Shown: positions 14,399-53,749, numbered from the stretch's first letter. The stretch: 64,000 nucleotides of DNA from Lachnospiraceae bacterium UBA938 (GCA_002293475.1 DBDG01000059.1:31726-95725); one strand, 5' to 3'. Program-made: numbers and translations. Notes: generated by a model from the sequence alone, not told the origin.

Positions 14399-14403
14399 GT
14401 GTT

Positions 14404-14481
14404 CAGCAGGTTTGTTGGCTTAATGGTCATGGACATATTGCCCAGCAGGTTTGTTGGCTTAATGGTCATCGACATATTACC
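14404..14481. repeat. Tandem direct repeat, 2 x 39 bp
   Basis: cagcaggtttgttggcttaatggtcat[g/c]gacatatt[g/a]cc occurs twice. The second copy runs into the left palindromic unit. Confidence 0.9.
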
Positions 14482-14723
14482 CAGCAAATCATCTGATCCG
14501 GTTCCGGCTCCCGAAAATAAGTGCAACTAAGTTTCCCGCCCGTGTTACCGGCCACTTCCGCTACCGGCGTTCAAGCGCCATCCATGGCGCGTGAAGCCTT
14601 GGTCGGACATCCGTGTCCGACCATAGCTAGGCTTATCTTATGCGAGAAACTAAGATGCACTAATTTTCTCCCGCAAGTCACCGGCTCAGATGATTTGCTG
14701 GGCAATATGTCGATTCGGTATTC
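14464..14723 (+). repeat. Palindromic rod-like unit, left copy (~260 nt, terminal 31-nt inverted repeats)
   Basis: 14469-14499 is complementary to 14683-14713 (29/31). Inner stem 14513-14539 pairs with 14642-14668. Internal hairpins are gcgcca-tcca-tggcgc and gtcggacatccgtgtccgac. Confidence 0.85.
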
Positions 14724-14895
14724 TGACCGGTAAGTTTGTATTGGGATTCACTTAGCATATTAAACATAAGACTCATTATTAGTTTCCATTCACGAGGCTA
14801 GATCCCACCATATATTGCGATAAACTGCATAGAGCTCATTATCCCAGTTAATGCTGAACAAAAATAATCAAGTGGTATACACAAGCCTACTAGTT

Positions 14896-15155
14896 GGAAT
14901 ACCGAATCGCCATATGGCCCAAGCATCATCGGCTCAGGTGACTTGCGGGAGAAAAATAGTGCATCTTAGTTTCTCACGTAAGATGAGCCTAGCTATGGTC
15001 GGACATGGATGTCCGACCAAGGCTTCACGCGCCATGGATGGCGCTTGAACGCCGATAGCGGGAGTAGTTAAAACTGAGGGGTGAGGAACTTAGTTGCACT
15101 TATTTTCGGGAGCCGGAACCGGAGCCGATGATGCTTGGGCCATATGGCGATGACC
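14896..15155 (-). repeat. Palindromic rod-like unit, right copy, inverted relative to the left copy (roughly 85-90 percent identical by eye)
   Basis: The reverse complement aligns end to end with 14464-14723. Its own termini 14907-14936 and 15121-15150 are complementary (29 nt perfect). Confidence 0.85.
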
Positions 15156-15245
15156 GCCCAAGCGAGAACCTAAGGCGCTGACCGCCCAAGCGAGAACCTA
15201 AGGCGATGACCGCCCAAGCGAGAACCTATGGCGCTGACCGCCTAG
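15150..15245. repeat. Tandem direct repeat, about 3.4 x 28 bp
   Basis: [a/c]tgaccgcccaagcgagaaccta[a/t]ggcg occurs at 15150, 15178 and 15206, with a partial copy at 15234. Confidence 0.9.
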
Positions 15246-15268
15246 CACTATATGAGGAGTTTAACACA

Positions 15269-17320
15269 TTGAAAGTATTAATAAAAGCCAGAACCCCTAT
15301 TTTGCTCTTTGTGGCAGTTCTCCTGTCGGAACTGTTGTTGTGGAACCTTTCTGCCGTCATCAGCATGTTCTATCAGGAAATCACTCCCGAGCCACAGAAC
15401 TGGGAAGGCAGGGCAATCCGGCAGGAGGACGGTTCGTACTTGCTTCCTGACGGGCAGCTTACGGTCACGCTCTCCGGTATACATGAAAAGGTGCACAATC
15501 TTCACCTTGACGTAGTGCCGCTTCCTTATGCGGAAGACGTCGGCAGCGCTCAGTCCGTATCTTATGAAATCTCGTTGAGCGATGAAGGGAATTACTATCC
15601 TTATGAACTGCCTGTCGGCATTATCGTGGAAGGAATCAGGGCAACGGAGTATACAGATATTCATGCCGCTGGTGAGGTTAAAGATGTCCATGTTACTTTT
15701 TCGGCCCCGGCGAATACCGTTGTCGGCAATTTGGCCGTTAAGGCGAATGTGAGGCTGCCCTTTGTGATTTCTATTCCAAGGATTGTTTTAGCGTATTTAT
15801 TGTTGATGGTTGGCTGGCTCTTGCTTTCCGGCAGAGCCTTGATGCCGGCAGGCCGGAATCTGGGAAAGGGGCAGATGGTGGCGGTTATCGTGCTTCTGGC
15901 GTTGCTCATGATCGGCTGTTATCGGCTTGCCGTACTGAATCCGGTGCATGTTAAGCCACCTTGGCCGCATCATCGGCAGTACCAAGAACTGGCGGAACTG
16001 TTGCTTAAGGGTAAGGTGGCCTTGGAGGAGAAGCCATCGTTGAAGCTGGTTGAGTCGATGAACCCTTATGATACCATCTGGCTGCAGGCGCAAGGGATAG
16101 AGTACAAGGCGGACTACGCATATCATGAAGATAATTATTTTGTTTATTTTGGGATTGTGCCGGAGCTTTTGCTGTATCTGCCTTTTCAAGTGATTATGGG
16201 TTTTCCGTTGCCTAATTATATGGCGGTATTTTTGCTTTTTTCCGGCTTTATGGTGATGGTTTTTGCTTTGTTCCGGGAAATTATCCGGAGCTTTTTTCCC
16301 GACACGCCGTTTTTGATCTGGTTGATGGTCGCTTTGATGACGGTGTTTGTGGGCAGCCATGCTTATCTGATGGCGGAGCCGGATATGTACAAAGTACCTA
16401 TTAGCGCCGCGTTGATGTTTACTGCCGCGGGGCTTTGGTTCTGGTTTAAGGCACTGAGGGCGGACGGGGTAAGGGGGCGGCTGTTGCTGGCCATGGGTTC
16501 ATTCTGCATGGCGCTGGTGGCCGGATGCCGACCACAGATGATTTTGTATTCGGGCCTAGGGATTTTGGTTTTCCGGGAGAAGAAGCTGTTTGCTTTGGGG
16601 AAAGATTTTTTTTCGCGGAAAAAGGAAAACTTTTCTTTGAAAGCTGTCGGGGATGTGCTGGCGTTTAGCCTGCCGTATCTGGTGGTCGGAGCCGGCGTCA
16701 TGTATTATAACTGGATCCGTTTCGGTTCGGTGCTGGACTTTGGTGCGGCATATAGCCTGACCAGCAATGATATGACGAAGCGAGGGTTTGACATAGAGCA
16801 GACCCTTCAAGGGCTGTATTATTACTTTATGCAGCTGCCGTTACTTGATACGGTATTTCCTTTTCTCCATCGGAATCCAGTGGAAACGGCTTATATGGGA
16901 AAGCTCAATGCGGAGTATGTATATGGTGGACTACTGGCCAGTAATGCATTTATATGGTTTGTCGGTTTTCTGCCTGTCGTCGGGAAGAGGCTTAGGGAGA
17001 AAGGGCTTTCCATATTTGTATGGACAGCATTGTCGGTTTCAGTAGCAGTGGCGGTTATAGATACGAATCTTGCCGGTATTCTGCAGCGCTATATGGCGGA
17101 CTTTACATGGGGGTTCGGCTTGGCGGCAGGGGTAGCGGCATTGGCATGGGCGGAACAGATGGCGGAAAGAAAACATACGGCGTTACCGAAGGTATTTATG
17201 GGTATATTTGTCCTTCAGGGCTTGTTTTCGTTGGCCCTTATCTTTGGCGGCGGAGATGCTGCTTTTGGGCTGCAGAACATGGCGCCGCAGGTGTTTTACC
17301 GTATTTATTCTTGGTTTTAG
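15269..17320 (+). CDS. Polytopic membrane protein, possibly a GT-C-fold glycosyltransferase (function uncertain)
   Basis: At least 10 hydrophobic helices by eye, after an N-terminal TM and a ~170-aa loop. TTG at 15269 lies 9 nt after GAGGAG (15254-15259). The ORF-track ATG at 15206 lies inside the 28-bp tandem repeat and lacks an RBS. Confidence 0.6.
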   Translation: MKVLIKARTPILLFVAVLLSELLLWNLSAVISMFYQEITPEPQNWEGRAIRQEDGSYLLPDGQLTVTLSGIHEKVHNLHLDVVPLPYAEDVGSAQSVSYEISLSDEGNYYPYELPVGIIVEGIRATEYTDIHAAGEVKDVHVTFSAPANTVVGNLAVKANVRLPFVISIPRIVLAYLLLMVGWLLLSGRALMPAGRNLGKGQMVAVIVLLALLMIGCYRLAVLNPVHVKPPWPHHRQYQELAELLLKGKVALEEKPSLKLVESMNPYDTIWLQAQGIEYKADYAYHEDNYFVYFGIVPELLLYLPFQVIMGFPLPNYMAVFLLFSGFMVMVFALFREIIRSFFPDTPFLIWLMVALMTVFVGSHAYLMAEPDMYKVPISAALMFTAAGLWFWFKALRADGVRGRLLLAMGSFCMALVAGCRPQMILYSGLGILVFREKKLFALGKDFFSRKKENFSLKAVGDVLAFSLPYLVVGAGVMYYNWIRFGSVLDFGAAYSLTSNDMTKRGFDIEQTLQGLYYYFMQLPLLDTVFPFLHRNPVETAYMGKLNAEYVYGGLLASNAFIWFVGFLPVVGKRLREKGLSIFVWTALSVSVAVAVIDTNLAGILQRYMADFTWGFGLAAGVAALAWAEQMAERKHTALPKVFMGIFVLQGLFSLALIFGGGDAAFGLQNMAPQVFYRIYSWF

Positions 17321-18108: not shown

Positions 18109-19371
18109 ATGAATGTGAATATGTATGTGAATATGAAGGAGAAACGAAATAAGAGAAATAAGATAAGTAAGATAAGTAAGATAAGTAAGATAAGTAAGGC
18201 GGCAACTATATTTTGGGTTTTGATGTTTGTTTTAGTGAGCATATCTGGTTGCAGTCAGAACAATATTGCAGTTGATAACGAACAGATATCGGCAGAGAAT
18301 GAACAGGCAGATAATGAACAGGCAGATAATGAACAGACAGATAATGAACAGACACCGGCAGATCAGACGGATAGTCAGTCTGTGGAGGATCAGCCAGAAG
18401 AGAAAATAAGTATTGTCTGTACGATTTTTCCGCAGTATGACTGGGTGCGGGAGATTTTAGGCGACAGGACAGAGGATGTGGAACTGACGCTTTTGCTGAA
18501 CGGAATGGCCGATCTTCACAGTTATCAGCCTACGGTAGAGGATATTGTAAAAATATCAAGCTGCGATCTGCTTATCTATACTGGCGGCGAATCTGACGTT
18601 TGGGTGGAGGATGTGCTTCAAGATGCAACGAATCCGAATATGGTGATCATCAATCTTCTGGAGTCTCTGGGAGATGCCGCCAAGTTAGAAGAGATACTCG
18701 AAGGCATGGAAGATGATGGGCACGAGCATGGCAGCGAAGAAGCGCACGAGGGCGAAGAAGCGCATGAAGACGATGAAGCGCATGAAGACGATGAAGCGCA
18801 TGAAGACGATGAAGCCCATGATGATCATGAAGAGGTACTTGATGAACATGTGTGGATGTCACTTAAAAATGCTGAGACGCTCTGCTTAGTTATTGAAGAG
18901 ACATTGTCTGTTCTGGATTCTGAGCATGCCGAGCAGTATGAAAGCAATATGCTCACATATGTAGAAAAACTTTCAACCTTAGACAGGCAGTATCAGGAGG
19001 CAATAGGTGCAGCACCGAATAAGACCTTGTTAATCGGGGATCGGCATCCTTACCGCTATCTGTTGGATGACTATGGCTTGAGCTGCTTTGCGGCCTTTGT
19101 CGGATGTTCAGCCGAAACTGAGGCGAGCTTTGAGACGATTGTCTTTTTATCAAAGAAGCTTGATGAGCTGGATCTGAAGCATGTTATCGTGACAGAAAGC
19201 ACTGATCAAGCCTTGGCCAATACCATTATTGAAAACAGCACGGACAAAGATCAGAGGATTCTTGTGCTGGACTCCCTGCAGTCTGTGACGACGCAAAATA
19301 TGGGGGAAGGCATGACGTATCTTTCCATCATGGAGAGCAACCTAGATGTATTAAAAGAAGCTGTGGGATAA
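18109..19371 (+). CDS. znuA: Metal (probably zinc) ABC transporter substrate-binding lipoprotein, ZnuA/AdcA-like
   Basis: Lipobox 'LVSISGCSQ'. His/Asp/Glu-rich loop 'HEHGSEEAHEGEEAHEDDEAHEDDEAHEDDEAHDDHEE' is typical of Zn-specific cluster A-I binding proteins. It is followed by ATPase and permease genes. Confidence 0.75.
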   Translation: MNVNMYVNMKEKRNKRNKISKISKISKISKAATIFWVLMFVLVSISGCSQNNIAVDNEQISAENEQADNEQADNEQTDNEQTPADQTDSQSVEDQPEEKISIVCTIFPQYDWVREILGDRTEDVELTLLLNGMADLHSYQPTVEDIVKISSCDLLIYTGGESDVWVEDVLQDATNPNMVIINLLESLGDAAKLEEILEGMEDDGHEHGSEEAHEGEEAHEDDEAHEDDEAHEDDEAHDDHEEVLDEHVWMSLKNAETLCLVIEETLSVLDSEHAEQYESNMLTYVEKLSTLDRQYQEAIGAAPNKTLLIGDRHPYRYLLDDYGLSCFAAFVGCSAETEASFETIVFLSKKLDELDLKHVIVTESTDQALANTIIENSTDKDQRILVLDSLQSVTTQNMGEGMTYLSIMESNLDVLKEAVG

Positions 19372-21647: not shown

Positions 21648-22532
21648 ATGGTCAGTAATCTGGAATATTATAAAGTGTTTTATTATGTGGCGCAATGCGG
21701 GAGCCTGACGGTTGCGGCGGAAAAACTGTCCATTTCCCAGCCGGCCGTAAGCCAGGCGGTGAAGCAGCTGGAGACCAATCTGGGTGTCAGGCTGTTTTCC
21801 CGCGTGTCTAAGGGGGTTCGCCTGACGAAAGAAGGCGCCCTTTTACATGAATATGTGGCAACGGGATATGAACGGATTGAGCTGGGAGAGCAGAAGCTAA
21901 GAAAGATGCTGGATCTTGAACTAGGAGAGCTGCGGATCGGAGCCAGTGATATGACCCTGCAGTTTTATCTACTGCCGTATCTGGAAAGCTACCATGAAAA
22001 ATATCCTCAGATCAAGGTTCAGGTCAGCAACGGGCCGACACCGGAAACGTTGATGCTGTTAGAGAACGGGAGCATTGACTTTGCTATCGTGAGCAGTCCG
22101 TTTGAGAAGAAGCGGCACATGAAAGTGACAGAAGTAAAGGAAATAGAAGATGTGTTTGTTGCGGGACGAAAGTTCATGCAGTACAAAAACCGGATGCTGG
22201 ATCTGCAAGAGCTGGAAAAACTCCCTTTGATTACGTTAGAGCAAAATACCAGTACAAGGACTTTTATGGATGATTATCTACGGAAGAACGGAGTAGAGAT
22301 CAGCCCGGAATTTGAGCTGGCCAACAGCGGAATCATCGTCCAGTTTGCTTTGCGCAATCTGGGGGTCGGCAGCGTCATGAAGGATTTTGCCCAAAAAGAC
22401 CTGGATTCGGGGAAGCTGTTTGAACTGCGGTTCAACAAGATAATACCGAAGCGTCAGTTCTGTGTAGTAACCCATACGGAGAACCGACTTTCGGTGGCAG
22501 CAGAGAATTTCTTGGAAGTACTTGGCAAATAA
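21648..22532 (+). CDS. LysR family transcriptional regulator
   Basis: N-terminal HTH 'GSLTVAAEKLSISQPAVSQAVKQLE'. Length 294 aa. Confidence 0.85.
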   Translation: MVSNLEYYKVFYYVAQCGSLTVAAEKLSISQPAVSQAVKQLETNLGVRLFSRVSKGVRLTKEGALLHEYVATGYERIELGEQKLRKMLDLELGELRIGASDMTLQFYLLPYLESYHEKYPQIKVQVSNGPTPETLMLLENGSIDFAIVSSPFEKKRHMKVTEVKEIEDVFVAGRKFMQYKNRMLDLQELEKLPLITLEQNTSTRTFMDDYLRKNGVEISPEFELANSGIIVQFALRNLGVGSVMKDFAQKDLDSGKLFELRFNKIIPKRQFCVVTHTENRLSVAAENFLEVLGK

Positions 22533-22566
22533 GCGCAGTGGGTTGCAGTAGTGTGAGAGGCGTATA

Positions 22567-22779
22567 TCAGTTATCCGGCTCTCTTTTTTTCATCTTACCG
22601 ACAGACCAGATAGTCAGCCATAAGAGAATAGGCAGCCCGATGGAGGCAACCAAGCAGGCGGCAAACAGGCGTTCCTTGCCAGGGAAATCCAAGATGGCCA
22701 CAACAAAGGTGACGATATAGAGGGAGACCAATAAAACGATGCCTGTGATAGCGGCAATCTGTTTTGGTGTTTTTTTCAT
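22567..22779 (-). CDS. Small membrane protein (70 aa, two TM helices)
   Basis: ORF with two hydrophobic stretches and a charged C-terminus. Confidence 0.45.
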   Translation of the reverse strand: MKKTPKQIAAITGIVLLVSLYIVTFVVAILDFPGKERLFAACLVASIGLPILLWLTIWSVGKMKKREPDN

Positions 22780-22907
22780 TGGATATTTTTCCTTTACAGT
22801 TTTTCCTTAAGATTGACTATATCACAAATCATGAAGATTGAAAACCCCCCAAGATAGGCGACGATACAAGAATATAGACAAAAATATAATTTTGTTAATT
22901 TTTATTG

Positions 22908-22936
22908 TTTACAAATTTGGTTTTTTCATATATAAT
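22908..22936 (+). promoter_or_regulatory. Sigma-A-type promoter in front of the precursor-peptide candidate
   Basis: TTTACA (22908-22913), 17-nt spacer, TATAAT (22931-22936). Confidence 0.55.
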
Positions 22937-23015
22937 CATATTGTTAAAATAACATTTAATATTGTCATACTACAATATCAGGTGTTTAATAATGTATTAT
23001 TATAAGGAGGTCAAG

Positions 23016-23258
23016 ATGAATATTACCGATGAACAAATGCAGATGCTGGAAAAGCAAGCAGTAGATATGGTTAAGCGCTCAATAAAGGGGGCTTTCGAGT
23101 CGCCAGACCTTGTCCGGCTGGGCGAAGATGAAACAGGCAATAAGACAAGCAGGGATATGGGTGAGTCTGTGGTGGCATCTGTGGCAGGCGGAGTGGCAAG
23201 CGGTGTAGCAAGTGCCGTTGTGGCTTCCATGATACCAGGACCGGTGGTTCCGGGCTGA
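23016..23258 (+). CDS. Candidate RiPP precursor peptide (80 aa)
   Basis: ATG at 23016 lies 5 nt after AAGGAGG (23004-23010). The N-terminal half is charged and helix-prone. The C-terminus is Cys-free: 'SVVASVAGGVASGVASAVVASMIPGPVVPG'. It is the first gene of a PqqD-like / radical SAM operon. Confidence 0.6.
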   Translation: MNITDEQMQMLEKQAVDMVKRSIKGAFESPDLVRLGEDETGNKTSRDMGESVVASVAGGVASGVASAVVASMIPGPVVPG

Positions 23259-23477
23259 TCAAAATGATTCATACATGCTTCGCGAAGGTTTGCTGGTTAG
23301 TAGTAAATGTTATAAAAAGATAATTAATGGAATAAGATACAATAGAACAATAGCACATATGACAAAGGGGATGGACCGATGAGCGAGATGATGCATGAAA
23401 ACCAGCGTAATGGTTCCCAGCCCGGTGATTCCAGGCTGATTTTAACAGAGTTGCCACTATAATAAAGGAGCACAAAG

Positions 23478-23756
23478 GTGCAAAAAAGGATACGTTTAGA
23501 ATGTGCAAGCTGGTATCGCCGTGATGACGGAGTGGTTCAGATAATCGGCAAAAACGGCAGAACTACTATTTTAAATAAAGCTTATTCGGAAGTTTGGGAC
23601 AAAATCGGATATGAGATAGAGAGCGGCGATCTGTGTAACGAAATGAAGGATGTTATGTCGGAAGAACTGATTATGCACATTTTGGATGAATTTATCAATA
23701 AAAATATGATTACGGTTACATCCGAAGCAGATAATTTTGATATGCTGTTCAATTAA
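23478..23756 (+). CDS. PqqD-like small protein (putative RiPP recognition element / peptide chaperone)
   Basis: 92 aa, GTG start after AAGGAG. The pattern 'LNKAYSEVWDKI...ESGDLCNEM...EELIMHILDEFINKNMI' resembles the PqqD family. It lies immediately upstream of radical SAM genes. Confidence 0.6.
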   Translation: MQKRIRLECASWYRRDDGVVQIIGKNGRTTILNKAYSEVWDKIGYEIESGDLCNEMKDVMSEELIMHILDEFINKNMITVTSEADNFDMLFN

Positions 23757-23778
23757 AAAGCGGATATGGGGTGTAACG

Positions 23779-25083
23779 ATGCGAAGCACGGATGTTTTAT
23801 TGATCAATCTCCCGACCGGGAGCTGGTATAAAGAAAGGCTGGCAGAATCCAACTCAATGCCGCCGCTGGGGCTACTATATATAGCGGCGGTCCTAAAGGA
23901 TAATGGGTTTGCGGTCAAGCTGGCAGATTTTGCCGTAGAGGAGTTCTCAAAAGAAAAATTATCGGCATATTTAGATGAATGTCAGTCGGGCATTGTAGGT
24001 ATGAGTACATATAATGAGTCTTGGAATGCCCAAAAGATTTTATGCGAACATATTAAGGCAAACTATCCGGCTATAACAGTTCTGGCTGGGGGTGCTTTTG
24101 CGACATTCTGCTATTCTGATATATTGCGTAAAACTAAAACAGACTATGTGCTTCGTGGTGAAGGGGAAAGATCCTTTTTACAATTCTGCAATTGCTTTTT
24201 TCATAAGGAAGGCTTTAAGGAAAAAGTCAGAAGCGTAAAGGGGATCGCTTTTTTGGAAGAAAACAATCAGGTGTTTGAGAATGGTCTAGCGGGCCGGATA
24301 TGCGATCTGGATGAACTGCCGTTTCCTGACCGTAGCTTGGTGAATCTGAAAAATTACGTACTGCCTTTTACGGTAAGTACATCCCGGGGCTGTCCGGGCA
24401 ACTGTATTTTCTGTTCTTCCAAGTCCTTCTGGGGGCAAAAGGTTATTATGCGTTCGGCAGAGAATATATATAAAGAGGTAGCGCAACTCCACAAAGAGTA
24501 TAAAACAAATCTATTTTATATTACCGATGATACATTTACGGCATCTAGGAAAAGATGTAATGATTTTTGTGAAATGCTGTTACAATCGGGCATTAAATAT
24601 ATCTGGGGCTGTGAGTCTAGGGCTGATATTGTTGATGAAGAATTAATTAAATTATTATATGAATCAGGCTGCCATAAGATTCAGTTTGGCTTTGAAAGCG
24701 CGAATAATGAAATCTTAAGGAAGTTAAAAAAACATGTAACAATAGAACAAATAGAAAATGCGGTAAGACTTGCCCATAAATATAATATGCACATACAGAC
24801 GTCATATATTATCGGGCACGCATTTGATACAAAGGAAACAATTGAACATACAATTTCTTTTGCAAGATACCTGCGGGACACCTATGGGGCTCGGGTAGCT
24901 TGCAGCGTAAATACGCCGTTCCCTGGTACCGAACAATTTGAAAAACGCGAAGAACTGGGAATCAAGATATATACTGATGACTGGTCGCAATACCTTTTGA
25001 ATGTTCCGATTATCAGTACAGATCATATGTCCCGGAATGATCTTGGATATTATCTGGGAGTGGGTCAGCAATTGGTCGATTAA
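23779..25083 (+). CDS. B12-binding-domain (class B) radical SAM enzyme
   Basis: The N-terminal segment 'LLINLP...PPLGLLYIAAVLKDNGFAVKLADF' is cobalamin-binding-domain like. The radical SAM motif is 'RGCPGNCIFCSS' (CxxxCxxC). Confidence 0.8.
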   Translation: MRSTDVLLINLPTGSWYKERLAESNSMPPLGLLYIAAVLKDNGFAVKLADFAVEEFSKEKLSAYLDECQSGIVGMSTYNESWNAQKILCEHIKANYPAITVLAGGAFATFCYSDILRKTKTDYVLRGEGERSFLQFCNCFFHKEGFKEKVRSVKGIAFLEENNQVFENGLAGRICDLDELPFPDRSLVNLKNYVLPFTVSTSRGCPGNCIFCSSKSFWGQKVIMRSAENIYKEVAQLHKEYKTNLFYITDDTFTASRKRCNDFCEMLLQSGIKYIWGCESRADIVDEELIKLLYESGCHKIQFGFESANNEILRKLKKHVTIEQIENAVRLAHKYNMHIQTSYIIGHAFDTKETIEHTISFARYLRDTYGARVACSVNTPFPGTEQFEKREELGIKIYTDDWSQYLLNVPIISTDHMSRNDLGYYLGVGQQLVD

Positions 25084-25129
25084 GGCGGTGTGCCGGTATG
25101 GAGCGGAACAGAACGAGAAGGAGCGAGGA

Positions 25130-26443
25130 TTGGAAGTATTAAATAAATATTATATATTTGCGAAAGACAAATATTTAATTAAGCCAATAGAAAACAGCTT
25201 TTTCCTTATTTCCAACGAGTTATTTGAAGTGCTGTGTGTCAATGAAACAGGTATTGAAATCATTAATGAATTAGATGGAACCAAGACAGTTAATGATATA
25301 ATTTCCAAGCTTTCCGGAGACTATGGCATTGAGGAGGATATTATATCCGAGCTGGTAGTGCAGTTTGTCATTAAATTAGTTAAGAGTGATCTGATAACCG
25401 ATGTTTTGTCTGAATATTCCTCAAATACAATTAACAAGCAAGACAGACTCCGAAGATTCTATGTTAGTATAGCCGGAAGGGAAGGGGAAGAACTGAATCC
25501 TGATATCATTGCTGATATTCTGGAAATGGTCCAGACAGATAATGACAAAATATTAATATATGTACATGGCAAAGAGCCAATGCTTCATTCCCGTTTTGAT
25601 GAGGTGTTGCAAATCCTTAGCAAAACTAAGCAGAACAATATTATTGTTTGTACGGATGGAAATATTTTACGCCATGGCTGGAAGACCGCTATACAAGAAT
25701 ATGTAAATGGTATTATGCTTAAATTTGCCCATACGGATAGAGAAATTAATGATCAGGTATTGGGCAAGGGTCATTATGACCATTATAAAGAAGCGCTGCA
25801 GTTTTACCGGGATTGCCGCGTGCCGGTCTACATGAATGTCATACCGACGGAGAAAAATATTGATAGTTTAACCGATATTCAGCAGTATGCGTATGACCTC
25901 CATATGAATGGGATTCAATTTCAGACTTCCTGTTTCCCGGGCAGTGTGAAGCCGCAGGACGGCTTGGTCAAAGATTACGAAGGGCAATATAAACAGGTTA
26001 AAAAGGAATTATATAAATTAAGCAATTTTTTGAACGCTTGGCGAAACAATCGTAGCAAAAGTGCAGGCCGGGAATTTCCGCTGTTCTTTGAGGATGACAG
26101 ATGCTTTTCCGGGTTTCGTGCCCTTTCCTGCATGTCTCATTGCGGTCTGATGTTAAATGAAATCAGTGTGGATTTACAAGGCCGGATATATCCTTGTCAT
26201 AAGCTGCACTGCGATGAGTTTATGTTTAAAAACGCCGATGAGTATCTGGCCAATAAAGATAGATTCAAGAAAGAGAGGGTTACTAACAATAAGTGTAATG
26301 AATGTGATTTCTGGCTGATTTGCATGGGAGGGTGCCGGGCAGATACCTATCATCATCGGGGCGAGATGTCGGCATTGAGCAGTGCCTGTGAGGAGCAAAA
26401 GCTGAAAATCATGGAAAGGCTTACAATGATTGCAAAAAGATAA
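25130..26443 (+). CDS. PqqD-like domain plus radical-SAM-fold plus SPASM domain protein that lacks the CxxxCxxC motif
   Basis: The C-terminal SPASM pattern is 'C-x12-G-x4-C' (CGLMLNEISVDLQGRIYPC) and 'CNECDFWLICMGGC' (Cx2Cx5Cx3C). 'RFYVSIAGREGEELNP' sits where the radical SAM cluster motif is expected. TTG at 25130 lies 6 nt after AAGGAG. The ORF-track start at 25001 would overlap the upstream gene by 83 nt. Confidence 0.7.
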   Translation: MEVLNKYYIFAKDKYLIKPIENSFFLISNELFEVLCVNETGIEIINELDGTKTVNDIISKLSGDYGIEEDIISELVVQFVIKLVKSDLITDVLSEYSSNTINKQDRLRRFYVSIAGREGEELNPDIIADILEMVQTDNDKILIYVHGKEPMLHSRFDEVLQILSKTKQNNIIVCTDGNILRHGWKTAIQEYVNGIMLKFAHTDREINDQVLGKGHYDHYKEALQFYRDCRVPVYMNVIPTEKNIDSLTDIQQYAYDLHMNGIQFQTSCFPGSVKPQDGLVKDYEGQYKQVKKELYKLSNFLNAWRNNRSKSAGREFPLFFEDDRCFSGFRALSCMSHCGLMLNEISVDLQGRIYPCHKLHCDEFMFKNADEYLANKDRFKKERVTNNKCNECDFWLICMGGCRADTYHHRGEMSALSSACEEQKLKIMERLTMIAKR

Positions 26444-26504
26444 GCAATAAAAAGCAAAAGCTGTAAAAATTAATATAATATCTTTATTTGAGTCTTTGCA
26501 AAGA

Positions 26505-26522
26505 ATATATATATATATATAT
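26505..26522. repeat. (AT)9 dinucleotide repeat
   Basis: atatatatatatatatat lies in the AT-rich intergenic region. Confidence 0.95.
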
Positions 26523-26611
26523 CAAAAAACATCTTATTCGTTAATTTAATATTGTTTATTTAAATCAAAGTCTAATCAGACAAAAATAACCACAAATATA
26601 AACAAAAAGAC

Positions 26612-26640
26612 TTGCGCAAATTGATTAAACATTATATAAT
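26612..26640 (+). promoter_or_regulatory. Sigma-A-type promoter ahead of the ABC/NRPS/PKS genes
   Basis: TTGCGC (26612-26617), 17-nt spacer, TATAAT (26635-26640). Confidence 0.5.
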
Positions 26641-26704
26641 GTACAAATACAAGCACTATATGAATTATAGATATTGTTAGTTGTTTAAGTAAAGGAGACA
26701 ATAC

Positions 26705-28429
26705 GTGTTCAATTTGCAGAAAAAGATACTTGTAAAATCATTTGTAAAGCCCTATCAATACTGGATAATAATTATTGTCGCGGCAGCGATTATTGGCACG
26801 GCTACAGATATCGCAGTGGTTTATTATGTTCAGATGTTAATTGATGACACGGTAATGTCAAATACGAGCATAAATAATATAATTAACATATGCTTATATT
26901 TAATAACAACTACTTTTTTGGGCATTTTAGTTAGATTTATTGTAAAGAAAGGTACAATGCTATTTGGGGTTTATGTAGTCAGGGATATCCGTCAGAGTGC
27001 CTATCGCCATATAAGTATCATACCCGTTTCTGATCTAGAGAGGTTTCATACCGGTGATATTGTCTCAAGACTTACAAACGATATTTTTACTATTCAGAAT
27101 TTTCTCCAAAATGATTTTTACTATCTCATATATTATCCGCTCTTGATATTTTTTACCTTTGTCTATATGCTCATTATTAATTGGAAGCTTGTCTTGTTTA
27201 GCTCCCTGCTTACTCCGATGATCCTCTTTTTGATTACGCTTTTAAGCAAACCGATAACGAAGTACACCAAATATATTCAAGAAAGCCTGGGCGATGCCAA
27301 TTCACTGGTTCGCGACAGCGTAGTGGGGGCTTCGGCAATAAAAACTTATAGCTTAAGCAGGTTCATGTCAGAAAAATATAAGGGGATTATGAAAGAATTA
27401 TTACAAAAGAGTCTTTCGCTAGAAAAGCTCCGCAGTGTCCTAGCGCCTGCCAATGTCGTATTAAGATTGCTCCCCTTTGTGTTATGCCTGCTATATGGCG
27501 GGTATTTAATGGTTCAGGGATCATTGGATATTGCTGGTTTTATCGCTTTTTTTCCGCTGCTTAATTACATGCTTCAGCCGACGGCCATGATACCTTATTA
27601 TATTGGCAGTATCAGAGCAGTAACAGCGGTGACGGAGCACATTTTTGACATATTTGCCCTGCCGCATGAAAGGCAAGACGGAGGGAGTTTTTTGCTGGAC
27701 GGACATTCTGTTGTGTTAGAGTTCGATAAGGTTTCCTTCCAATACGGGGATCATGAAAAAGTCCTTGATAATTTAAGCTTTCAGTTAGAAACAGGAAAAA
27801 CCATAGCTATCGTCGGTTTAAGCGGCAGCGGAAAAAGCACCATACTTAAACTGGGATGTGGGTTTTATGAGCCGACGGATGGACAGATCAGGCTAGGCGG
27901 GACATCCTATTCCGAATGGAACCTGAAAAAGGCAAGGGAGAATATCGCTGTGGTGTCACAGGATAATTATCTTTTTCACGCCAGCATAGCGGATAATATT
28001 TCCTGCGGCAGGCCTGAGACTGTCAGAGAGGACATCATAGAAGCGGCGCAAGCCGCCGGTGCCCATGAATTTATTGTTAAGCTGCCTAGCGGCTATGACA
28101 CTTTAGTAGGAGAAATGGGAACAGGAATCTCAGGAGGACAACGACAGAGAATCGCAATAGCAAGGGCTTTCCTGAAAAATGCCCCGATATTTTTCTTTGA
28201 TGAACCGACATCAGCACTTGACACCCAGACAGAAGCTTCTGTGCACGATGCCCTTGTGAAGCTGAAAACAAAATACTCTGTACTTATTGTGACGCACCGT
28301 TTGAGCACCGCGAAGCTGGCAGATGAGATCATCGTTCTGGACGGAGGGCGTATCGTACAGACCGGCTCACATGACCAGTTGCTGAAGGAAGAAGGGGCAT
28401 ATAAAGCACTTTACAGTTCCTTAAGCTAG
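26705..28429 (+). CDS. ABC exporter, fused permease-ATPase (half transporter)
   Basis: Six N-terminal TM helices. Walker A 'GLSGSGKST', signature 'ISGGQRQRIAIARA'. No N-terminal C39 peptidase domain. Confidence 0.85.
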   Translation: MFNLQKKILVKSFVKPYQYWIIIIVAAAIIGTATDIAVVYYVQMLIDDTVMSNTSINNIINICLYLITTTFLGILVRFIVKKGTMLFGVYVVRDIRQSAYRHISIIPVSDLERFHTGDIVSRLTNDIFTIQNFLQNDFYYLIYYPLLIFFTFVYMLIINWKLVLFSSLLTPMILFLITLLSKPITKYTKYIQESLGDANSLVRDSVVGASAIKTYSLSRFMSEKYKGIMKELLQKSLSLEKLRSVLAPANVVLRLLPFVLCLLYGGYLMVQGSLDIAGFIAFFPLLNYMLQPTAMIPYYIGSIRAVTAVTEHIFDIFALPHERQDGGSFLLDGHSVVLEFDKVSFQYGDHEKVLDNLSFQLETGKTIAIVGLSGSGKSTILKLGCGFYEPTDGQIRLGGTSYSEWNLKKARENIAVVSQDNYLFHASIADNISCGRPETVREDIIEAAQAAGAHEFIVKLPSGYDTLVGEMGTGISGGQRQRIAIARAFLKNAPIFFFDEPTSALDTQTEASVHDALVKLKTKYSVLIVTHRLSTAKLADEIIVLDGGRIVQTGSHDQLLKEEGAYKALYSSLS

Positions 28430-28459
28430 AGATTGATATTTGTTTAACTATAATACGTT

Positions 28460-30217
28460 GTGGCGCAGATGGGAGATGAGATGGGAGAAATAAAAAAACT
28501 GTTTTCTTTGATGGGGCGAAGAAAGTACGGATATTTGACAGGGATTCTTATAACCGCCTGTGCGGAGACAAGTATTTATATTGTGGTTTCTTTTGTGCTA
28601 CGGGATATGTATAATGCCGGGGTGCGTACAGATATGGCGATCCTGATCCGAGCGGCCGGAATTATGGGGATAACAACAATTACTGTCAGCATTTTATATG
28701 GTATGTTCAGTTACATGTACAATGCTTCGGCCAGAAAGGCAATGGCTGAAATAAGGCTTAAGTCATATGTGACGGCAGGAAACCTCCCGGTTTCTTATTT
28801 CGAGCAAAATCACAGTGGCGATGTTGTGTCCAGAATGACTAATGATATGCAACTTCTGGAGCAGATATACACCCTTCAGATTTACTCATTTGCCTACACA
28901 GTCATTTATGGAAGCGCCTCGGCAGTATTCATGCTACTGACTGACTGGCAGCTCTCTATATATTTTCTGGCAATGGGAGGGATATTGCTGGGGATAAACG
29001 CCGGACTGGCAAAAGCACTGCGACGGCTAAGTAAAAAGATTCAGGAATTACAGAGCCGGCTGACTTCCGGGCTGTCAGATTTGCTATCTGGCCTGAAGAT
29101 TGTCAGGATGTTCCATCTAGAAGTAATTACCTATAAGGAATATGAGGAGCTGAACCGGGAATCGGTTCGCTTGAATAAGAGACGTGCCAATAAAAATGCC
29201 TTGATTGAGAGCACTAATTATTTCATGGGTACGGCCAGCTATGCCGGACTGGTTGCGGTGGGAGTTTTAATGGCGACATTGGGCAAGATTGAAGTGGATA
29301 AGGTGATCGGTCTTACGCAATTGATGATGGGGGTCACTTTTATGTTTCAGCAACTAGGCAATGCCGTTGCCGGCTTGCAGAGCTCGCTGGCCGGGGCGAG
29401 GAGGGTGACGGAGCTGTTGAATGAGAAACCGGAACCGGAATCCTATCATAATCTGGTGATTTCCGAGCAGGCAGAGTACGCCTTGTCGGTGGAGCATCTA
29501 TATTTCAGCTATGATGGTTCTGCCAACATCCTTGAAGATATCAGCCTTAACGTAAAGGCTGGGGAGATGATTGCGATAGTAGGCAACAGCGGGAGTGGAA
29601 AAAGTACATTGATAAAGGTGCTGTTAGGGCTTTATGAAGCCGACAGCGGAATGATTACAGTCAAAAATAACGCTACTACGACTGGAACGATAAACAGGCT
29701 CAGAAGTTCGATGTCTTATGTATCGCAGGATGTCTGTCTGTTCAATGCCAGCATCAGGGAGAACGTAAGCTATGGAAGGTTCGATGCAAAGGATGCGGAA
29801 ATCGAAGCAGTATGCCGGGCAGCACATGCCCATGATTTTATTGTAGAATTCGAAGAGGGTTATGACACGTCAGCAGGTGAAAACGGGTCAAGGCTGTCAG
29901 GCGGTCAGAAACAAAGAATTGCATTGGCTAGGGCTCTGTTAAAAGAAGCACCCATCATCCTGCTGGATGAAGCGACATCGGCATTGGATAATCAGACAGA
30001 GCGGTATGTGCAGGAGTCGATGGTAGAACTGATAAAAGGGCGGACAGCGATAGTAGTAGCCCATCGGCTTTCGACGATAAAAAATGCGGATAGGATCTAT
30101 GTTATGGATAAGGGCAGGATTGTTGAATGTGGCAGCCATGATGAACTGCTGCAGACTGGAGGAGTGTATGCCGGTCTCTACCATATTCAGAGGATAGAAA
30201 ACAAGCTAAAGGAATAG
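28460..30217 (+). CDS. ABC exporter, fused permease-ATPase (probable heterodimer partner)
   Basis: Walker A 'GNSGSGKST', signature 'LSGGQKQRIALARA'. The start is ambiguous: GTG 28460, or ATG 28481 after 'gggag'. Confidence 0.85.
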   Translation: MAQMGDEMGEIKKLFSLMGRRKYGYLTGILITACAETSIYIVVSFVLRDMYNAGVRTDMAILIRAAGIMGITTITVSILYGMFSYMYNASARKAMAEIRLKSYVTAGNLPVSYFEQNHSGDVVSRMTNDMQLLEQIYTLQIYSFAYTVIYGSASAVFMLLTDWQLSIYFLAMGGILLGINAGLAKALRRLSKKIQELQSRLTSGLSDLLSGLKIVRMFHLEVITYKEYEELNRESVRLNKRRANKNALIESTNYFMGTASYAGLVAVGVLMATLGKIEVDKVIGLTQLMMGVTFMFQQLGNAVAGLQSSLAGARRVTELLNEKPEPESYHNLVISEQAEYALSVEHLYFSYDGSANILEDISLNVKAGEMIAIVGNSGSGKSTLIKVLLGLYEADSGMITVKNNATTTGTINRLRSSMSYVSQDVCLFNASIRENVSYGRFDAKDAEIEAVCRAAHAHDFIVEFEEGYDTSAGENGSRLSGGQKQRIALARALLKEAPIILLDEATSALDNQTERYVQESMVELIKGRTAIVVAHRLSTIKNADRIYVMDKGRIVECGSHDELLQTGGVYAGLYHIQRIENKLKE

Positions 30218-30227
30218 GGAAAAACAT

Positions 30228-33200
30228 ATGAAAATTACCAAAGAGCAGCTGTTTGGGCTGACACATGCACAAAAGCGGATATGGTACGGTGAGAAACTGT
30301 ATCCGGAATTACGGGATGAAATTATATGTCTTATTATTGCTTTTACAGTAGAGATATGTCCCGACTTATTAGCAGAGGCAGTAAATGCCTTGATCAGAAA
30401 CAACCCCGATATGAGGTTAAGAATGCATTCCCAGGACGGGGAATGTATGCAGTATTATTCAGAATATCATGGTTATCAAGCAGAGGTTCTGGAATTTGCC
30501 GGGGTAGAAGCGGACAGACAGGCAGAACAGTATTTCAGTGACCTGTATGACCAGAAATTTGCGTTGTATCATTGTGATCTTTTTCATTTCTCCGTTTTAA
30601 AAATCAACAATTCCGTTAGGTTTTTTATTAAAATTCATCATTTAATCTCCGACAACTGTACCATTGCCCTTATTATGGATAAAGTATTGGGTTATTACCG
30701 GACACTGAAAGCAGGGCAGAAGGTCCTGGAGCCTATCGGGGAGCAAGGCAGGTACCGGCAGTATTACCAGTGGGAACAAGAGTATCTGGTTTCTGATAAG
30801 TATTCACAGAACAAAGAATATTGGAATAATAAATTCAAGACAGTTCCCGATGAATTAAGCATAGAACCGTTTAAGACATTAAACCGGCAGGATTACAGCT
30901 CGGCCAAGTCTAAATTTGTGATGCCCGTTGAATTTGTCGACAATATTAAAAGATTCTGCGGTAAATATGATACTACGGTTTACCGGGTTATTTTAGCAGC
31001 ACTGTACATCTACATTTATAAGGCATCAAGCAGAGAAGATATCATTATTTCCACTCTGAAGCATAATAGAACGGAAGCAACCATGGATATATTGGGGATG
31101 TTTGTATGCACGGTTCCGGTTCGCTTAGCAATAGATAAAGAAATGGATTTTCTGGCTGTTTTGCGCCTACTCAGAAAGGAATTGCGATTATGTGCAAAAA
31201 ATCAAGACTATCCGTATGACCAGCTCATAAATGACCTCAGGGAGAATGGTGTAGACAACGGAAATTATCTTAATGATATCCAAGTGTCTTATCATACGGC
31301 ATATCCGGCAGAAATTGATTATGCGACATGGTACTTTAAAGGCGGCATTGCCAATGCAATTTATTTTACCATAAGCGACTGGGGGGATAACGGAATACTG
31401 GACTTCGAGATCAATTATCGTACGTCGCTCTTTGACGAAGCAGCCATCAACAGAATATACCGCTGTATGTGCAGATTGATAGAGGAAGGAATCCGATATC
31501 CGGAACATAAGCTCGCACAGCTAGACATGCTCGGTGCCGAACAGACAAACAAGCTACTGTTTGAATTTAATGCCACTACGGCAGCTTATCCCGATCAGTC
31601 GACGATACATCAGCAGTTTGAAGCACAAGCCGAAAGAACTCCGGATCTGATTGCGGTTATTTATAAAGCAACAGCGCTGACTTATTCACAGCTGAACGCT
31701 AGGACTAATCAATTGGCGCGGACACTTAGAAAAGCGGGGGTTAACCGAGACAGTATTATTGCGCTGCTGCTTAACCGGACAGAAGAAATGATAATAGCTA
31801 TACTCGCCATCCTAAAAGCAGGCGGCGCATATCTACCGATAGATTCTAGCTATCCCCTTGATAGAATCAGCTATATGATCAAAGACTCAGGCGCGGAAAT
31901 CATATTGACAAAGACGGATATGGCTGGGCTGTCTTACGCGGGAAAAGAAATATTTATTGACGATAACGTTTTTTATGATGCCGACCAGAGTAATCTGGCC
32001 AATATAAACAAAAGCTGTGATCTGGCATATATGATCTATACGTCCGGCTCTACCGGAAAACCCAAGGGAGTCATGATAGAACATCGGGCAGTTCTTAATT
32101 TTGTTAAAGGAATGACGGACCGCATCGATTTTCATGAGAATAAGACCATTTTATCGTTAACCACCATTTCCTTTGATATTTTCGTGTTAGAGGCCCTGCT
32201 TCCCTTGATGACAGGAATGAAAACGGTTATTGCTGATGAAACGCAACAGTACGACCCTGTCCAAATGAACAGTCTGATTATCACAAATAATGTTGATATC
32301 ATCCAGATGACACCGTCTCGCATGCAGCTGCTTTTAGCAAACGGACAGAATATCACCGGACTGAAAGACATTAAGGAAATACTGCTGGGCGGCGAGGCGG
32401 TTACGGAGAGCCTCATCAGAAGCTTAAGGCCGTTGACCGGCGCGAAGCTATACAATATGTACGGCCCCACGGAAACGACAGTCTGGTCATCGGTAAAAAG
32501 TATTGAGAAGAATGACGAGATTACAATCGGAAAACCTATTGCCAATACCCGTATTTATATTGTAAATAAGCATAACGAGCTTGTGCCGGCCGGGGTTATA
32601 GGAGAAATCTGTATCGCTGGGACCGGAGTTGCCAGGGGATATCATAACCGAGAAGAGCTTAACCGAGAAAAGTTTGTTAAAATCCCCGCCGGCTTTAGTA
32701 AGGACGGTGGCGGGCATGAGATTATGTATCGAACCGGGGATCTGGGGTGGTGGCGGCCGGACGGTGACATAGAATTCGTGGGAAGAATAGATACACAAGT
32801 CAAGCTTAGGGGATACCGGATCGAACTGGAAGAGATAGAGAGGGCTGCTATGGAACACGGGTCGATTACTAAATGTGCGGCTATCGTGAAAGAGAATAAC
32901 AAGGGGCATCAATATCTTGTCCTGTATTATGCGGCCGGGGAAACTATTGCCGCCCAAGAGCTTGATCGCTTTTTGAAAGATAAGCTGCCTCATTACATGA
33001 TACCGGGCGATTTTATCTGGATGAAAGAATTACCGATGACACCCAACGGCAAGCTCAACAGGCAAGCGTTACCGGAATCGACTTTGCCGGCAGAGCCAGT
33101 AAGCAATACATTCATAGATCCCGAAACTAGGTATGAAAAGCAGGTACTTGATATCTGGAAAAAAGTACTGGATAAGGATGCCATTGATATTCATGAGAAT

Positions 33201-53674: not shown

Positions 53675-53747
53675 CGGGGTGTGGCTCAGGTGGTAGAGCG
53701 CTACTTTAGGGAAGTAGAGGCCGCAAGTTCAAGTCTTGTCACTCCGA
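53675..53747 (+). tRNA. trnP: tRNA-Pro with apparent anticodon AGG
   Basis: Hand fold. Acceptor CGGGGTG/CACTCCG, U8, D arm GCTC-AGGTGGTA-GAGC. Anticodon stem CTACT/AGTAG with loop TTAGGGA (U33, A34 G35 G36, G37). T arm GCAAG-TTCAAGT-CTTGT. Discriminator A. Confidence 0.8.
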
Positions 53748-53749
53748 CT
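53723..53749 (+). repeat. attL-like 27-bp direct repeat (3' part of tRNA-Pro)
   Basis: gcaagttcaagtcttgtcactccgact matches 56709-56735 at 26 of 27 positions. Confidence 0.85.

Follow-up and report, generated by a model that had tools for sequence, protein, structure and literature searches.

A probable RiPP operon of a conserved clostridial family, with a B12-radical SAM enzyme and a cluster-less SPASM protein, in Lachnospiraceae bacterium UBA938

What is the task of an operon in which a small peptide gene is followed by a cobalamin-dependent radical enzyme and by a second, radical-enzyme-like protein whose catalytic cluster is missing? The question is posed by a stretch of 64,000 nucleotides (nt) from Lachnospiraceae bacterium UBA938 (GCA_002293475.1, DBDG01000059.1:31726-95725), called here the window. 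Its positions 22908-26443 hold, on the + strand, a four-gene operon coding for a precursor peptide, a protein of 92 amino acids (aa), a B12-binding radical S-adenosylmethionine (SAM) enzyme and a protein that joins a RiPP recognition element (RRE) to a SPASM domain. A first-pass annotation, made by a model from the sequence alone, had read these genes as an operon for a peptide that is made on ribosomes and modified after translation (RiPP) and had held that the combination differs from known systems. We have little doubt that this is a RiPP operon and that it belongs to a conserved family. The family, a clostridial one, appears to be uncharacterised: as the annotation had supposed, no characterised RiPP class fits, whether by model scores or by the features that define membership, and a full-text search of the literature that is not subscription-only returned no description of the cassette or of its precursors. 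Queries with peptide motifs gave only irrelevant papers. The most unusual feature of this RiPP system tailored by a B12-radical SAM enzyme is its pseudo-radical-SAM SPASM partner.

Operon layout and related loci

The promoter, the ribosome-binding site (RBS) and the four genes that the annotation had placed in this interval were all recovered (Table 1). All four open reading frames (ORFs) are intact and have good RBSs downstream of a near-consensus promoter, and identical operon proteins come from several independent assemblies. The precursor gene lies 219 nt ahead of the gene for the 92-aa protein. The RNA of segment 23250-23480 folds no better than shuffles (z = 0.15), giving no sign of an attenuator, a site scan of the same segment detected no terminator-like site, and neither a cobalamin nor any other riboswitch was found near the operon.

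Relatives were sought on the contigs encoding homologues of the B12 enzyme and by a scan of GTDB representative genomes. The search with the B12 enzyme returned many clostridial proteins at 47-74% identity, and the same cassette is present in at least 17 distinct other loci of Clostridia and Erysipelotrichia (L003-L018, L028 and L030). Its hosts include Clostridium perfringens, C. frigidicarnis, C. punense, Lacrimispora amygdalina, Anaerosalibacter, a Clostridiaceae isolate, an Erysipelotrichia metagenome-assembled genome (MAG) and gut Lachnospiraceae and Ruminococcaceae MAGs. The GTDB representatives hold no locus closer than 64% identity. Within the metagenome collection, 1,893 blocks contain the B12-enzyme orthologue P0017; its gut Lachnospiraceae lineage is therefore very common in sequenced samples. 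The usual order of genes is the small ORF, the protein of about 92 aa, the B12 enzyme and the RRE/radical-SAM/SPASM protein, mostly followed by a second B12 enzyme and by ATP-binding cassette (ABC) transporters. All the full-length related loci that were inspected keep the small ORF beside the enzymes, in an unchanged position, and the RiPP reading therefore stands. As judged from these comparisons, the gene arrangement is far beyond chance, with the same order and a homologous small ORF recurring in all the distinct loci counted above.

In the closest locus, L003, the cassette stands between two LanM-type lanthipeptide synthetase genes (1694-4633 on the - strand and 12031-15039 on the + strand). 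These have small ORFs and a C39-ABC exporter of their own, and two RiPP systems are thus interleaved.

The precursor, its recognition proteins and the enzymes

The product of the 80-aa gene, MNITDEQMQMLEKQAVDMVKRSIKGAFESPDLVRLGEDETGNKTSRDMGESVVASVAGGVASGVASAVVASMIPGPVVPG, contains no Cys, Trp or Tyr, as the annotation had noticed. No Pfam or NCBIfam model matches it at E <= 0.01; phmmer links it to the small ORFs of the related loci with E values from 2e-16 to 3e-5. Its layout is that of the family, with FESPDL in the leader, a core rich in Gly, Val, Ala, Ile and Ser, and MIPGPVVPG directly before the stop codon. The annotation had made its reading hinge on a small ORF that is kept next to these enzymes in other genomes, and this is what the family displays: all 18 precursors share the leader motif and 16 of them the tail. 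The family leader motif resembles in sequence the [Y/W]xxPx[L/V/I/F/A] motif that discrete lasso-peptide RREs read (PMC13381572).

Because the window precursor has no double-glycine site, the N-terminal boundary of its predicted core, ESVVASVAGGVASGVASAVVASMIPGPVVPG, is uncertain. The hidden Markov model (HMM) of the family core recognizes every tail-bearing precursor, with E values between 1e-11 and 1e-17. Over their final 30 residues, the 16 tail-bearing precursors consist mainly of Gly (22%), Val (21.5%), Ala (15%), Ile (11%), Pro (10%) and Ser (9%). The C. punense precursor (L017, 6359-6592) is divergent, having a Lys-rich core with AIKS repeats and ending in IPGPV, and that of Lachnospiraceae MGBC000170 (L018, 6431-6601) has a divergent core and wholly lacks the PGP tail.

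Tandem precursor genes, two in each locus, occur in L011 and L013. In the window, the gap between the precursor gene and the next one holds ATGGTTCCCAGCCCGGTGATTCCAGGCTGA, which translates to MVPSPVIPG before a stop codon and has stops upstream in the same frame. This segment is most simply, and probably, the tail of a decayed second precursor gene. The likeness is limited to the 30-nt tail, and the relic was not picked up when the entire gap was aligned locally, as DNA, with the precursor gene (score 42, against a mean of 27.6 and a maximum of 45 for shuffles). A 20-aa ORF, MSEMMHENQRNGSQPGDSRL (23379-23441), overlaps the relic in another frame; it is open and is not conserved elsewhere.

The 92-aa protein is a probable discrete RRE, an assignment in which we have moderate confidence. 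Its gene immediately precedes that of the first B12 enzyme in the 13 loci aligned and also in L028 and L030. The alignment has W12, L32 and F91 as invariant positions and a widely shared ECxxW[YF] motif. The annotation had called the protein PqqD-like, a label that the predicted fold supports and sequence profiles do not. Neither Pfam nor NCBIfam gave a match, the 13 family members scanned singly yielded one PqqD match (E 0.085), a profile search of the PDB reached YydG and a lasso PqqD chaperone at E about 0.5 only, and hhalign against the RRE of the SPASM protein returned a probability of 3%; a PqqD identity by sequence is thus rejected. A word-indexed homology search retrieved the protein itself only. 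A single-sequence AF2 model, with a predicted local distance difference test (pLDDT) of 59.5, places three or four strands ahead of three helices. Its top five Foldseek matches are TigE, two entries of leader-bound TbiB1, TruD and a further cyanobactin heterocyclase, with E values of 0.07-0.27 and query template-modelling (TM) scores of 0.50-0.61 (0.57-0.60 for TbiB1). All of these are known RRE-containing proteins.

The B12-radical SAM enzyme is the best-conserved component. It is 74% identical to its counterpart in L003, with a nonsynonymous divergence (dN) of 0.16. Across the related loci, identity to the first B12 enzyme ranges over 50-74%, and the window enzyme falls into clade A of the family tree. 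PF02310 and PF04055 matches together with C205, C209 and C212 bear out the annotation, which had recognized a class B radical SAM enzyme with an intact CxxxCxxC. The enzyme has no RRE of its own. Its top curated models are BchE (218.7 bits), HpnJ and ApyD (146.5 bits), and further matches include PhpK-type and HpnR methylases and the MCR glutamine C-methyltransferase. Every one of these matches is far below its cutoff and no methylase equivalog is reached; therefore none predicts the chemistry. The solved structures closest by sequence include the dehydratase AprD4 and the ring-contracting OxsB. Peptide C-methylation is carried out by the B12-radical SAM enzymes PoyB and PoyC and those of bottromycin synthesis (PMC11285071), by the RiPP beta-methylase ApyD (PMC11117315) and by the clavusporin enzyme, which acts on a ribosomal peptide (PMC10849626). 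Membership of this enzyme family makes C-methylation of the hydrophobic core the most likely chemistry of the window enzyme.

For the last gene, TTG 25130 is the most likely start, because GAAGGAG precedes this codon, the NCBI gene call P0001 begins there and the N-termini of homologues agree with it. The alternative ATG 25001, giving 480 aa, is less likely and would overlap the preceding gene by 83 nt. PF05402 and TIGR04085 (SPASM, 49 bits against a cutoff of 27) uphold the PqqD-like N-terminus and the SPASM domain of the annotation. The Radical_SAM profile matches only from its position 21 on, past the cluster-binding loop, and at 26.3 bits against a cutoff of 29.5. In a 16-member alignment, ...DITNACNLKCKYCNK... 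and then TGGEPLL is the reading in the intact proteins of the Clostridium type as well as in a planctomycete outgroup. A gap of about 17 residues replaces the CNLxCxYC loop in the proteins of the window, L003, L004, L009, L010, L016 and L018, and in the window protein the GGEP motif persists as HGKEPML. The annotation was thus correct in calling the SPASM partner cluster-less, and the alignment assigns the deletion to a whole subfamily. On this sequence evidence the protein is unable to bind a radical SAM cluster. Eight Cys residues in and just before the SPASM domain are kept in intact and degenerate members alike, and the ligands of the auxiliary clusters are therefore probably retained.

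Among the 11 representatives at 50% identity that an exhaustive HMMER search returned with E < 1e-30, the loop is absent in six and kept in five. In a neighbour-joining tree the intact protein P0129 groups with those of the window and L003 inside an otherwise degenerate clade; its position hints at more than one loss of the loop, in a tree that has no support values and on which we do not rely. The SPASM proteins of the window and L003 share 43% identity and evolve about three times faster than the B12 enzymes. Their dN of 0.51 with a saturated synonymous divergence (dS) therefore indicates a protein that is relaxed yet apparently still under purifying selection. A word-indexed search with the SPASM protein found essentially itself, plus two matches at E about 1e-3; the family was reached through the B12 enzyme search and the exhaustive HMMER search.

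Two types of locus can be told apart by this loop. An S8 peptidase gene lies between the SPASM and second B12 genes in all seven distinct loop-intact loci, which are of the Clostridium type (L006-L007, L011-L015 and L017), and in none of the loop-deleted loci of the Lachnospiraceae type (L003-L005, L008-L010, L016, L028 and L030). Six distinct degenerate loci carry a C39-peptidase ABC exporter, L003 has one at its edge, and most precursors of degenerate loci have a double-glycine site before the core. The B12 enzymes fall into clade A, which adjoins the small protein, and clade B, with one to three copies per locus. Three copies, of which two are A-type and one is B-type, are present in L028 and in L030, and the window and L018, the latter also loop-deleted, have a single A-type enzyme. 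Related loci also carry ABC-2 immunity-type transporters, a bacteriocin-like context. In the 64 kb of the window there is no S8 or C39 homologue and no B-type copy, and comparison of the identities of its ABC pair revealed no family-type exporter. With one B12 enzyme and neither S8 nor C39 peptidase, the window copy is therefore a reduced member of the family.

Table 1. Features of the operon and of the genes downstream, with positions counted from the first letter of the window
Feature	Position	Strand	Basis or remark
Sigma-70-type promoter, TTTACA-17 nt-TATAAT	22908..22936	+	11/12 consensus positions; top match in scan of 22500-30400
RBS of precursor gene, AAGGAGG	23004..23010	+	5 nt ahead of ATG 23016; sequence reading
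Precursor gene, 80 aa	23016..23258	+	homologous small ORFs at same position in all related loci
Leader motif FESPDLVRLG, residues 27-36	23094..23123	+	family motif [YF]xxPx-hydrophobic
Predicted core	23163..23255	+	family core HMM, 55 bits, E 2.9e-15
C-terminal tail MIPGPVVPG	23229..23255	+	family signature (I/V/F)PGPx(I/V)PG-stop
Probable second-precursor relic	23410..23439	+	frame translation
92-aa protein, probable discrete RRE	23478..23756	+	GTG start; AAGGAG 6 nt upstream
B12-binding radical SAM enzyme, 434 aa, A-type	23779..25083	+	PF02310, 67.6 bits (cutoff 32.1); PF04055, 78.3 bits (cutoff 29.5)
Cobalamin domain of B12 enzyme	about 23854-24177	+	Pfam
Radical SAM domain of B12 enzyme	about 24373-24864	+	Pfam
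Cluster motif CPGNCIFC, C205-x3-C209-x2-C212	24391..24414	+	three Cys invariant in alignment A1
RRE + degenerate radical SAM core + SPASM protein, 437 aa	25130..26443	+	TTG start; Pfam, NCBIfam
PqqD-type RRE domain	25238..25396	+	PF05402, E 4.5e-8, 33.8 bits (cutoff 23.4)
Site of deleted CxxxCxxC loop, junction RFYVSIAGR/EGEELN	25454..25498	+	alignment with intact relatives
SPASM-region Cys C325, C338, C356, C389, C392, C398, C402, C420	26102..26389	+	sequence reading, alignment
ABC exporter pair (574 and 585 aa), both full-length and without C39 domain	26705..30217	+	Pfam
Secondary-metabolite locus: ABC pair, C-A-T non-ribosomal peptide synthetase (1248 aa), free acyltransferase (426 aa), acyltransferase-less polyketide synthase (3100 aa)	26705-47375	+	

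A proposed pathway, known systems and rival explanations

We find reasonably probable, without being strongly committed to it, an account in which the window operon is a functional, reduced member of the family that works by B12-dependent C-methylation with the SPASM protein as an accessory. The precursor, the 92-aa protein, the B12 enzyme and the RRE-SPASM protein would be co-transcribed. Two RREs, the discrete 92-aa one and that within the SPASM protein, would bind the leader motif in the way lasso B1 proteins bind YxxPxL, and the RRE would present the hydrophobic core to the B12 enzyme. This enzyme, through its [4Fe-4S]/SAM site and methylcobalamin, would put methyl groups on unactivated carbons in the side chains of Val, Ile, Ala or Pro, yielding a more hydrophobic, protease-resistant, membrane-active peptide. 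The SPASM protein, unable to cleave SAM, would be retained as a non-radical accessory, acting as a peptide scaffold and/or relaying electrons to the B12 enzyme via the auxiliary Fe-S clusters that it has kept. Its counterpart in the ancestral gene clusters of the Clostridium type would be an active radical SAM enzyme adding a further modification that is lost here. The product is probably a hydrophobic, membrane-active peptide, with which the exporters and immunity-type transporters of related loci fit. A bolder version is tentative and, to us, rather doubtful: the SPASM protein would be a pseudo-radical-SAM Fe-S accessory, kept, perhaps, after the SAM-cleaving cluster had been lost independently more than once, that holds the precursor by its RRE, feeds electrons from two auxiliary [4Fe-4S] clusters to the B12 enzyme or enzymes, and forms an obligatory subunit of a C-methylating complex making a polytheonamide-like hyper-hydrophobic peptide in common gut Clostridia.

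To our knowledge, RiPPs tailored by B12-radical SAM enzymes are few, namely proteusins, bottromycins, thiostrepton, clavusporins and aminopyruvatides. They have given unusual chemistry at unactivated carbons. By analogy, the logic of the window system is most like that of proteusins and clavusporins, with lasso-type leader recognition added. It shares with the proteusins a hydrophobic core rich in Val, Ile, Ala and Gly and a likely membrane-active product (PMC11285071). As in the polytheonamide system (precursor PoyA, C-methyltransferases PoyB/PoyC and epimerase PoyD), the family has in most of its loci at least two paralogous B12-radical SAM enzymes and, in its Clostridium-type relatives, a non-B12 radical SAM partner. 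Unlike in proteusins, the window precursor has no nitrile-hydratase-like (NHLP) or Nif11 leader and carries a lasso-like motif alongside a probable discrete RRE, the partner is a SPASM protein, cluster-less in the window, the hosts are Firmicutes and the PGPxIPG tail is the family's own. Having no such leader and no active PoyD-type epimerase, the cluster loop being deleted, the system does not belong to the proteusins. The clavusporins (Streptomyces Mpc) likewise involve a hydrophobic peptide, multiply C-methylated by a B12-radical SAM enzyme with an unusual or non-catalytic partner (PMC10849626), methylation being a prediction in the window. Clavusporin-type systems need a DUF5825 partner of the B12-radical SAM enzyme (PMC10849626); no protein of the operon has DUF5825, which sets it outside this type, and it differs further by its RRE and SPASM partner, by another precursor family and by clostridial instead of actinobacterial hosts. 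The aminopyruvatide enzyme ApyD is a RiPP enzyme and the third-best curated model for the window B12 enzyme, which stays below its cutoff of 750 bits. ApyD has its own RRE and methylates one Tyr, whereas in the window the RRE stands apart from the enzyme and the precursor is Tyr-free.

Lasso B1 proteins and other discrete PqqD-type RREs such as TbiB1 have the same form of leader motif, and the 92-aa model matches TbiB1. The 92-aa protein differs from them in having an extra N-terminal strand with the conserved ECxxW[YF] and in being missed by PqqD profiles. A lasso-peptide system is rejected, as neither a B2 cysteine protease nor an asparagine-synthetase-like cyclase is present in the operon or the related loci. 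The SPASM maturases (CteB/PapB, SCIFF, CbpB and TigE/TvgB) share the architecture of RRE, radical SAM core and SPASM domain, and CteB (5wgg) is the solved structure closest by sequence to the SPASM protein. The best curated models for its intact relatives are CbpB, ScmE and PapB, all far below cutoffs, and the window protein itself scores 49 bits against a cutoff of 340 for PapB and 43 against 425 for SCIFF. Since the precursor lacks Cys, thioether formation is excluded; the Cys-free precursor and the absent radical SAM cluster place the system outside the sactipeptides and ranthipeptides. Scores of 35 bits against 381 for PqqE and 37 against 265 for MftC, together with a Tyr-free precursor in place of a Glu-Tyr or Val-Tyr one, place it outside the PQQ and mycofactocin systems. 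In the cyclopropyl synthases TvgB and TigE a strictly conserved GYW motif ligates auxiliary cluster I (PMC10878394). The 437-aa protein has no GYW and its cluster loop is deleted, and such an activity is rejected. A haloarchaeal 'pseudo-SAM/SPASM' family of NCBIfam, TIGR04347, is named as lacking a true SAM cluster, and its existence therefore provides a precedent for the pseudo-SAM/SPASM concept in an unrelated lineage; the nearest intact relative of the window protein, P0129, scores 49.9 bits against its cutoff of 525. We know of no link between TIGR04347 and RiPPs or B12 enzymes.

Several points weigh against the account of a functional, C-methylating operon. The chemistry is its weakest step: B12-radical SAM enzymes also catalyse non-methylation reactions, and the top curated model of the window enzyme is that of a cyclase, BchE. 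The accessory role of the SPASM protein is purely inferred, and the RRE call for the 92-aa protein draws on a low-confidence model and on the Foldseek E values given above. The window operon has no double-glycine site, leader peptidase, second B12 enzyme or family-type exporter, and with these parts missing and a second precursor decayed it may be eroding. These points feed two other explanations. The B12 enzyme could perform non-methylating radical chemistry on the core or on the PGPxVPG tail, forming a C-C or C-N cross-link, cyclising the peptide or rearranging it. BchE and then HpnJ at the head of the curated models, AprD4 and OxsB among the closest structures, and a near-invariant Pro/Gly tail, odd for simple methylation and a conceivable cyclisation handle, would fit such a reaction. 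We nevertheless hold it to be unlikely, though well worth keeping in mind: the curated matches all lie far below cutoff, a core rich in Val, Ile and Ala served by one to three paralogous B12 enzymes parallels the logic of polytheonamide and clavusporin, and the characterised B12-radical SAM enzymes that modify peptides are mostly methylases, as in PoyB/C and bottromycin (PMC11285071), ApyD (PMC11117315) and clavusporin (PMC10849626). A lower probability still is given to the window copy being an eroding remnant that makes no product, its four remaining genes drifting. Its intact ORFs with their RBSs and promoter, the identical proteins in several independent assemblies, and the retention of leader motif, core, tail, eight SPASM-region Cys and RRE all argue otherwise, and L018 offers a single-B12 version elsewhere. 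What speaks for decay is the single B12 enzyme, against two or three in most relatives, the lack of a double-glycine site and of any S8 or C39 peptidase in the 64 kb, the relic precursor tail and the threefold faster evolution of the SPASM protein.

It is very improbable that the RiPP operon is joined to the non-ribosomal peptide synthetase (NRPS) and trans-acyltransferase (trans-AT) polyketide synthase (PKS) genes that follow it, be it through a shared ABC export or in an acylated or extended hybrid product. Both sets share a strand, and from 26443 to 26705 no terminator-like site was detected. The ABC genes come after those of the RiPP set, to which they are nearer than the NRPS, and are in tight coupling with the latter, the same arrangement is found in the independent assembly L001, and the first NRPS module starts with a condensation domain. 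However, no other locus of the family has NRPS or PKS genes, a gap of 261 nt with 27.5% GC and a shift in GC content divide the two gene sets, and the ABC pair resembles the family exporters in a generic way only.

The family is widespread in anaerobic Firmicutes, with a version in C. perfringens, and has its own precursor signature. Its sister gene clusters, in some of which the radical SAM/SPASM partner is active and in others cluster-less, amount to a natural experiment. Characterisation could give a new peptide scaffold of the gut microbiota, probably a membrane-active bacteriocin, could reveal the modification installed by the active SPASM enzyme, and could test whether SPASM auxiliary clusters function without a radical SAM site.

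Downstream genes and other features of the window

Aligned in full or in part with the exporters found in the family loci, the ABC pair downstream of the operon has 24-38% identity to them, and orthology is rejected at this level. The pair is provisionally assigned to the NRPS/PKS unit rather than to the RiPP operon: the gaps from ABC to NRPS genes are of 10-30 nt, against the 261 nt that follow 26443. A (TA)8 microsatellite (26507-26522) lies inside this larger gap. In the secondary-metabolite locus, the AT-less PKS has two KS domains in addition to KR, DH and ACP domains, and an ORF of 906 aa has no Pfam match at E <= 1e-5.

Two divergent TwoAYGGAY motifs (RF01731) are found upstream of the operon, at 14506-14675 on the - strand and 14944-15114 on the + strand, with 105.8 and 100.6 bits against a gathering threshold of 43. 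The pair stands just upstream of a 704-aa ORF (15206-17320). An ORF for a ZnuA-like substrate-binding lipoprotein (18109-19371, + strand) precedes genes for an ABC ATPase and a permease. It contains repeats, with ISK four times and ADNEQ three times, and a long His/Asp/Glu-rich loop of EAHEDD repeats. ARAGORN places a tRNA-Pro gene with anticodon AGG at 53675-53748 on the + strand; A at position 34 is unusual in bacterial tRNA-Pro.

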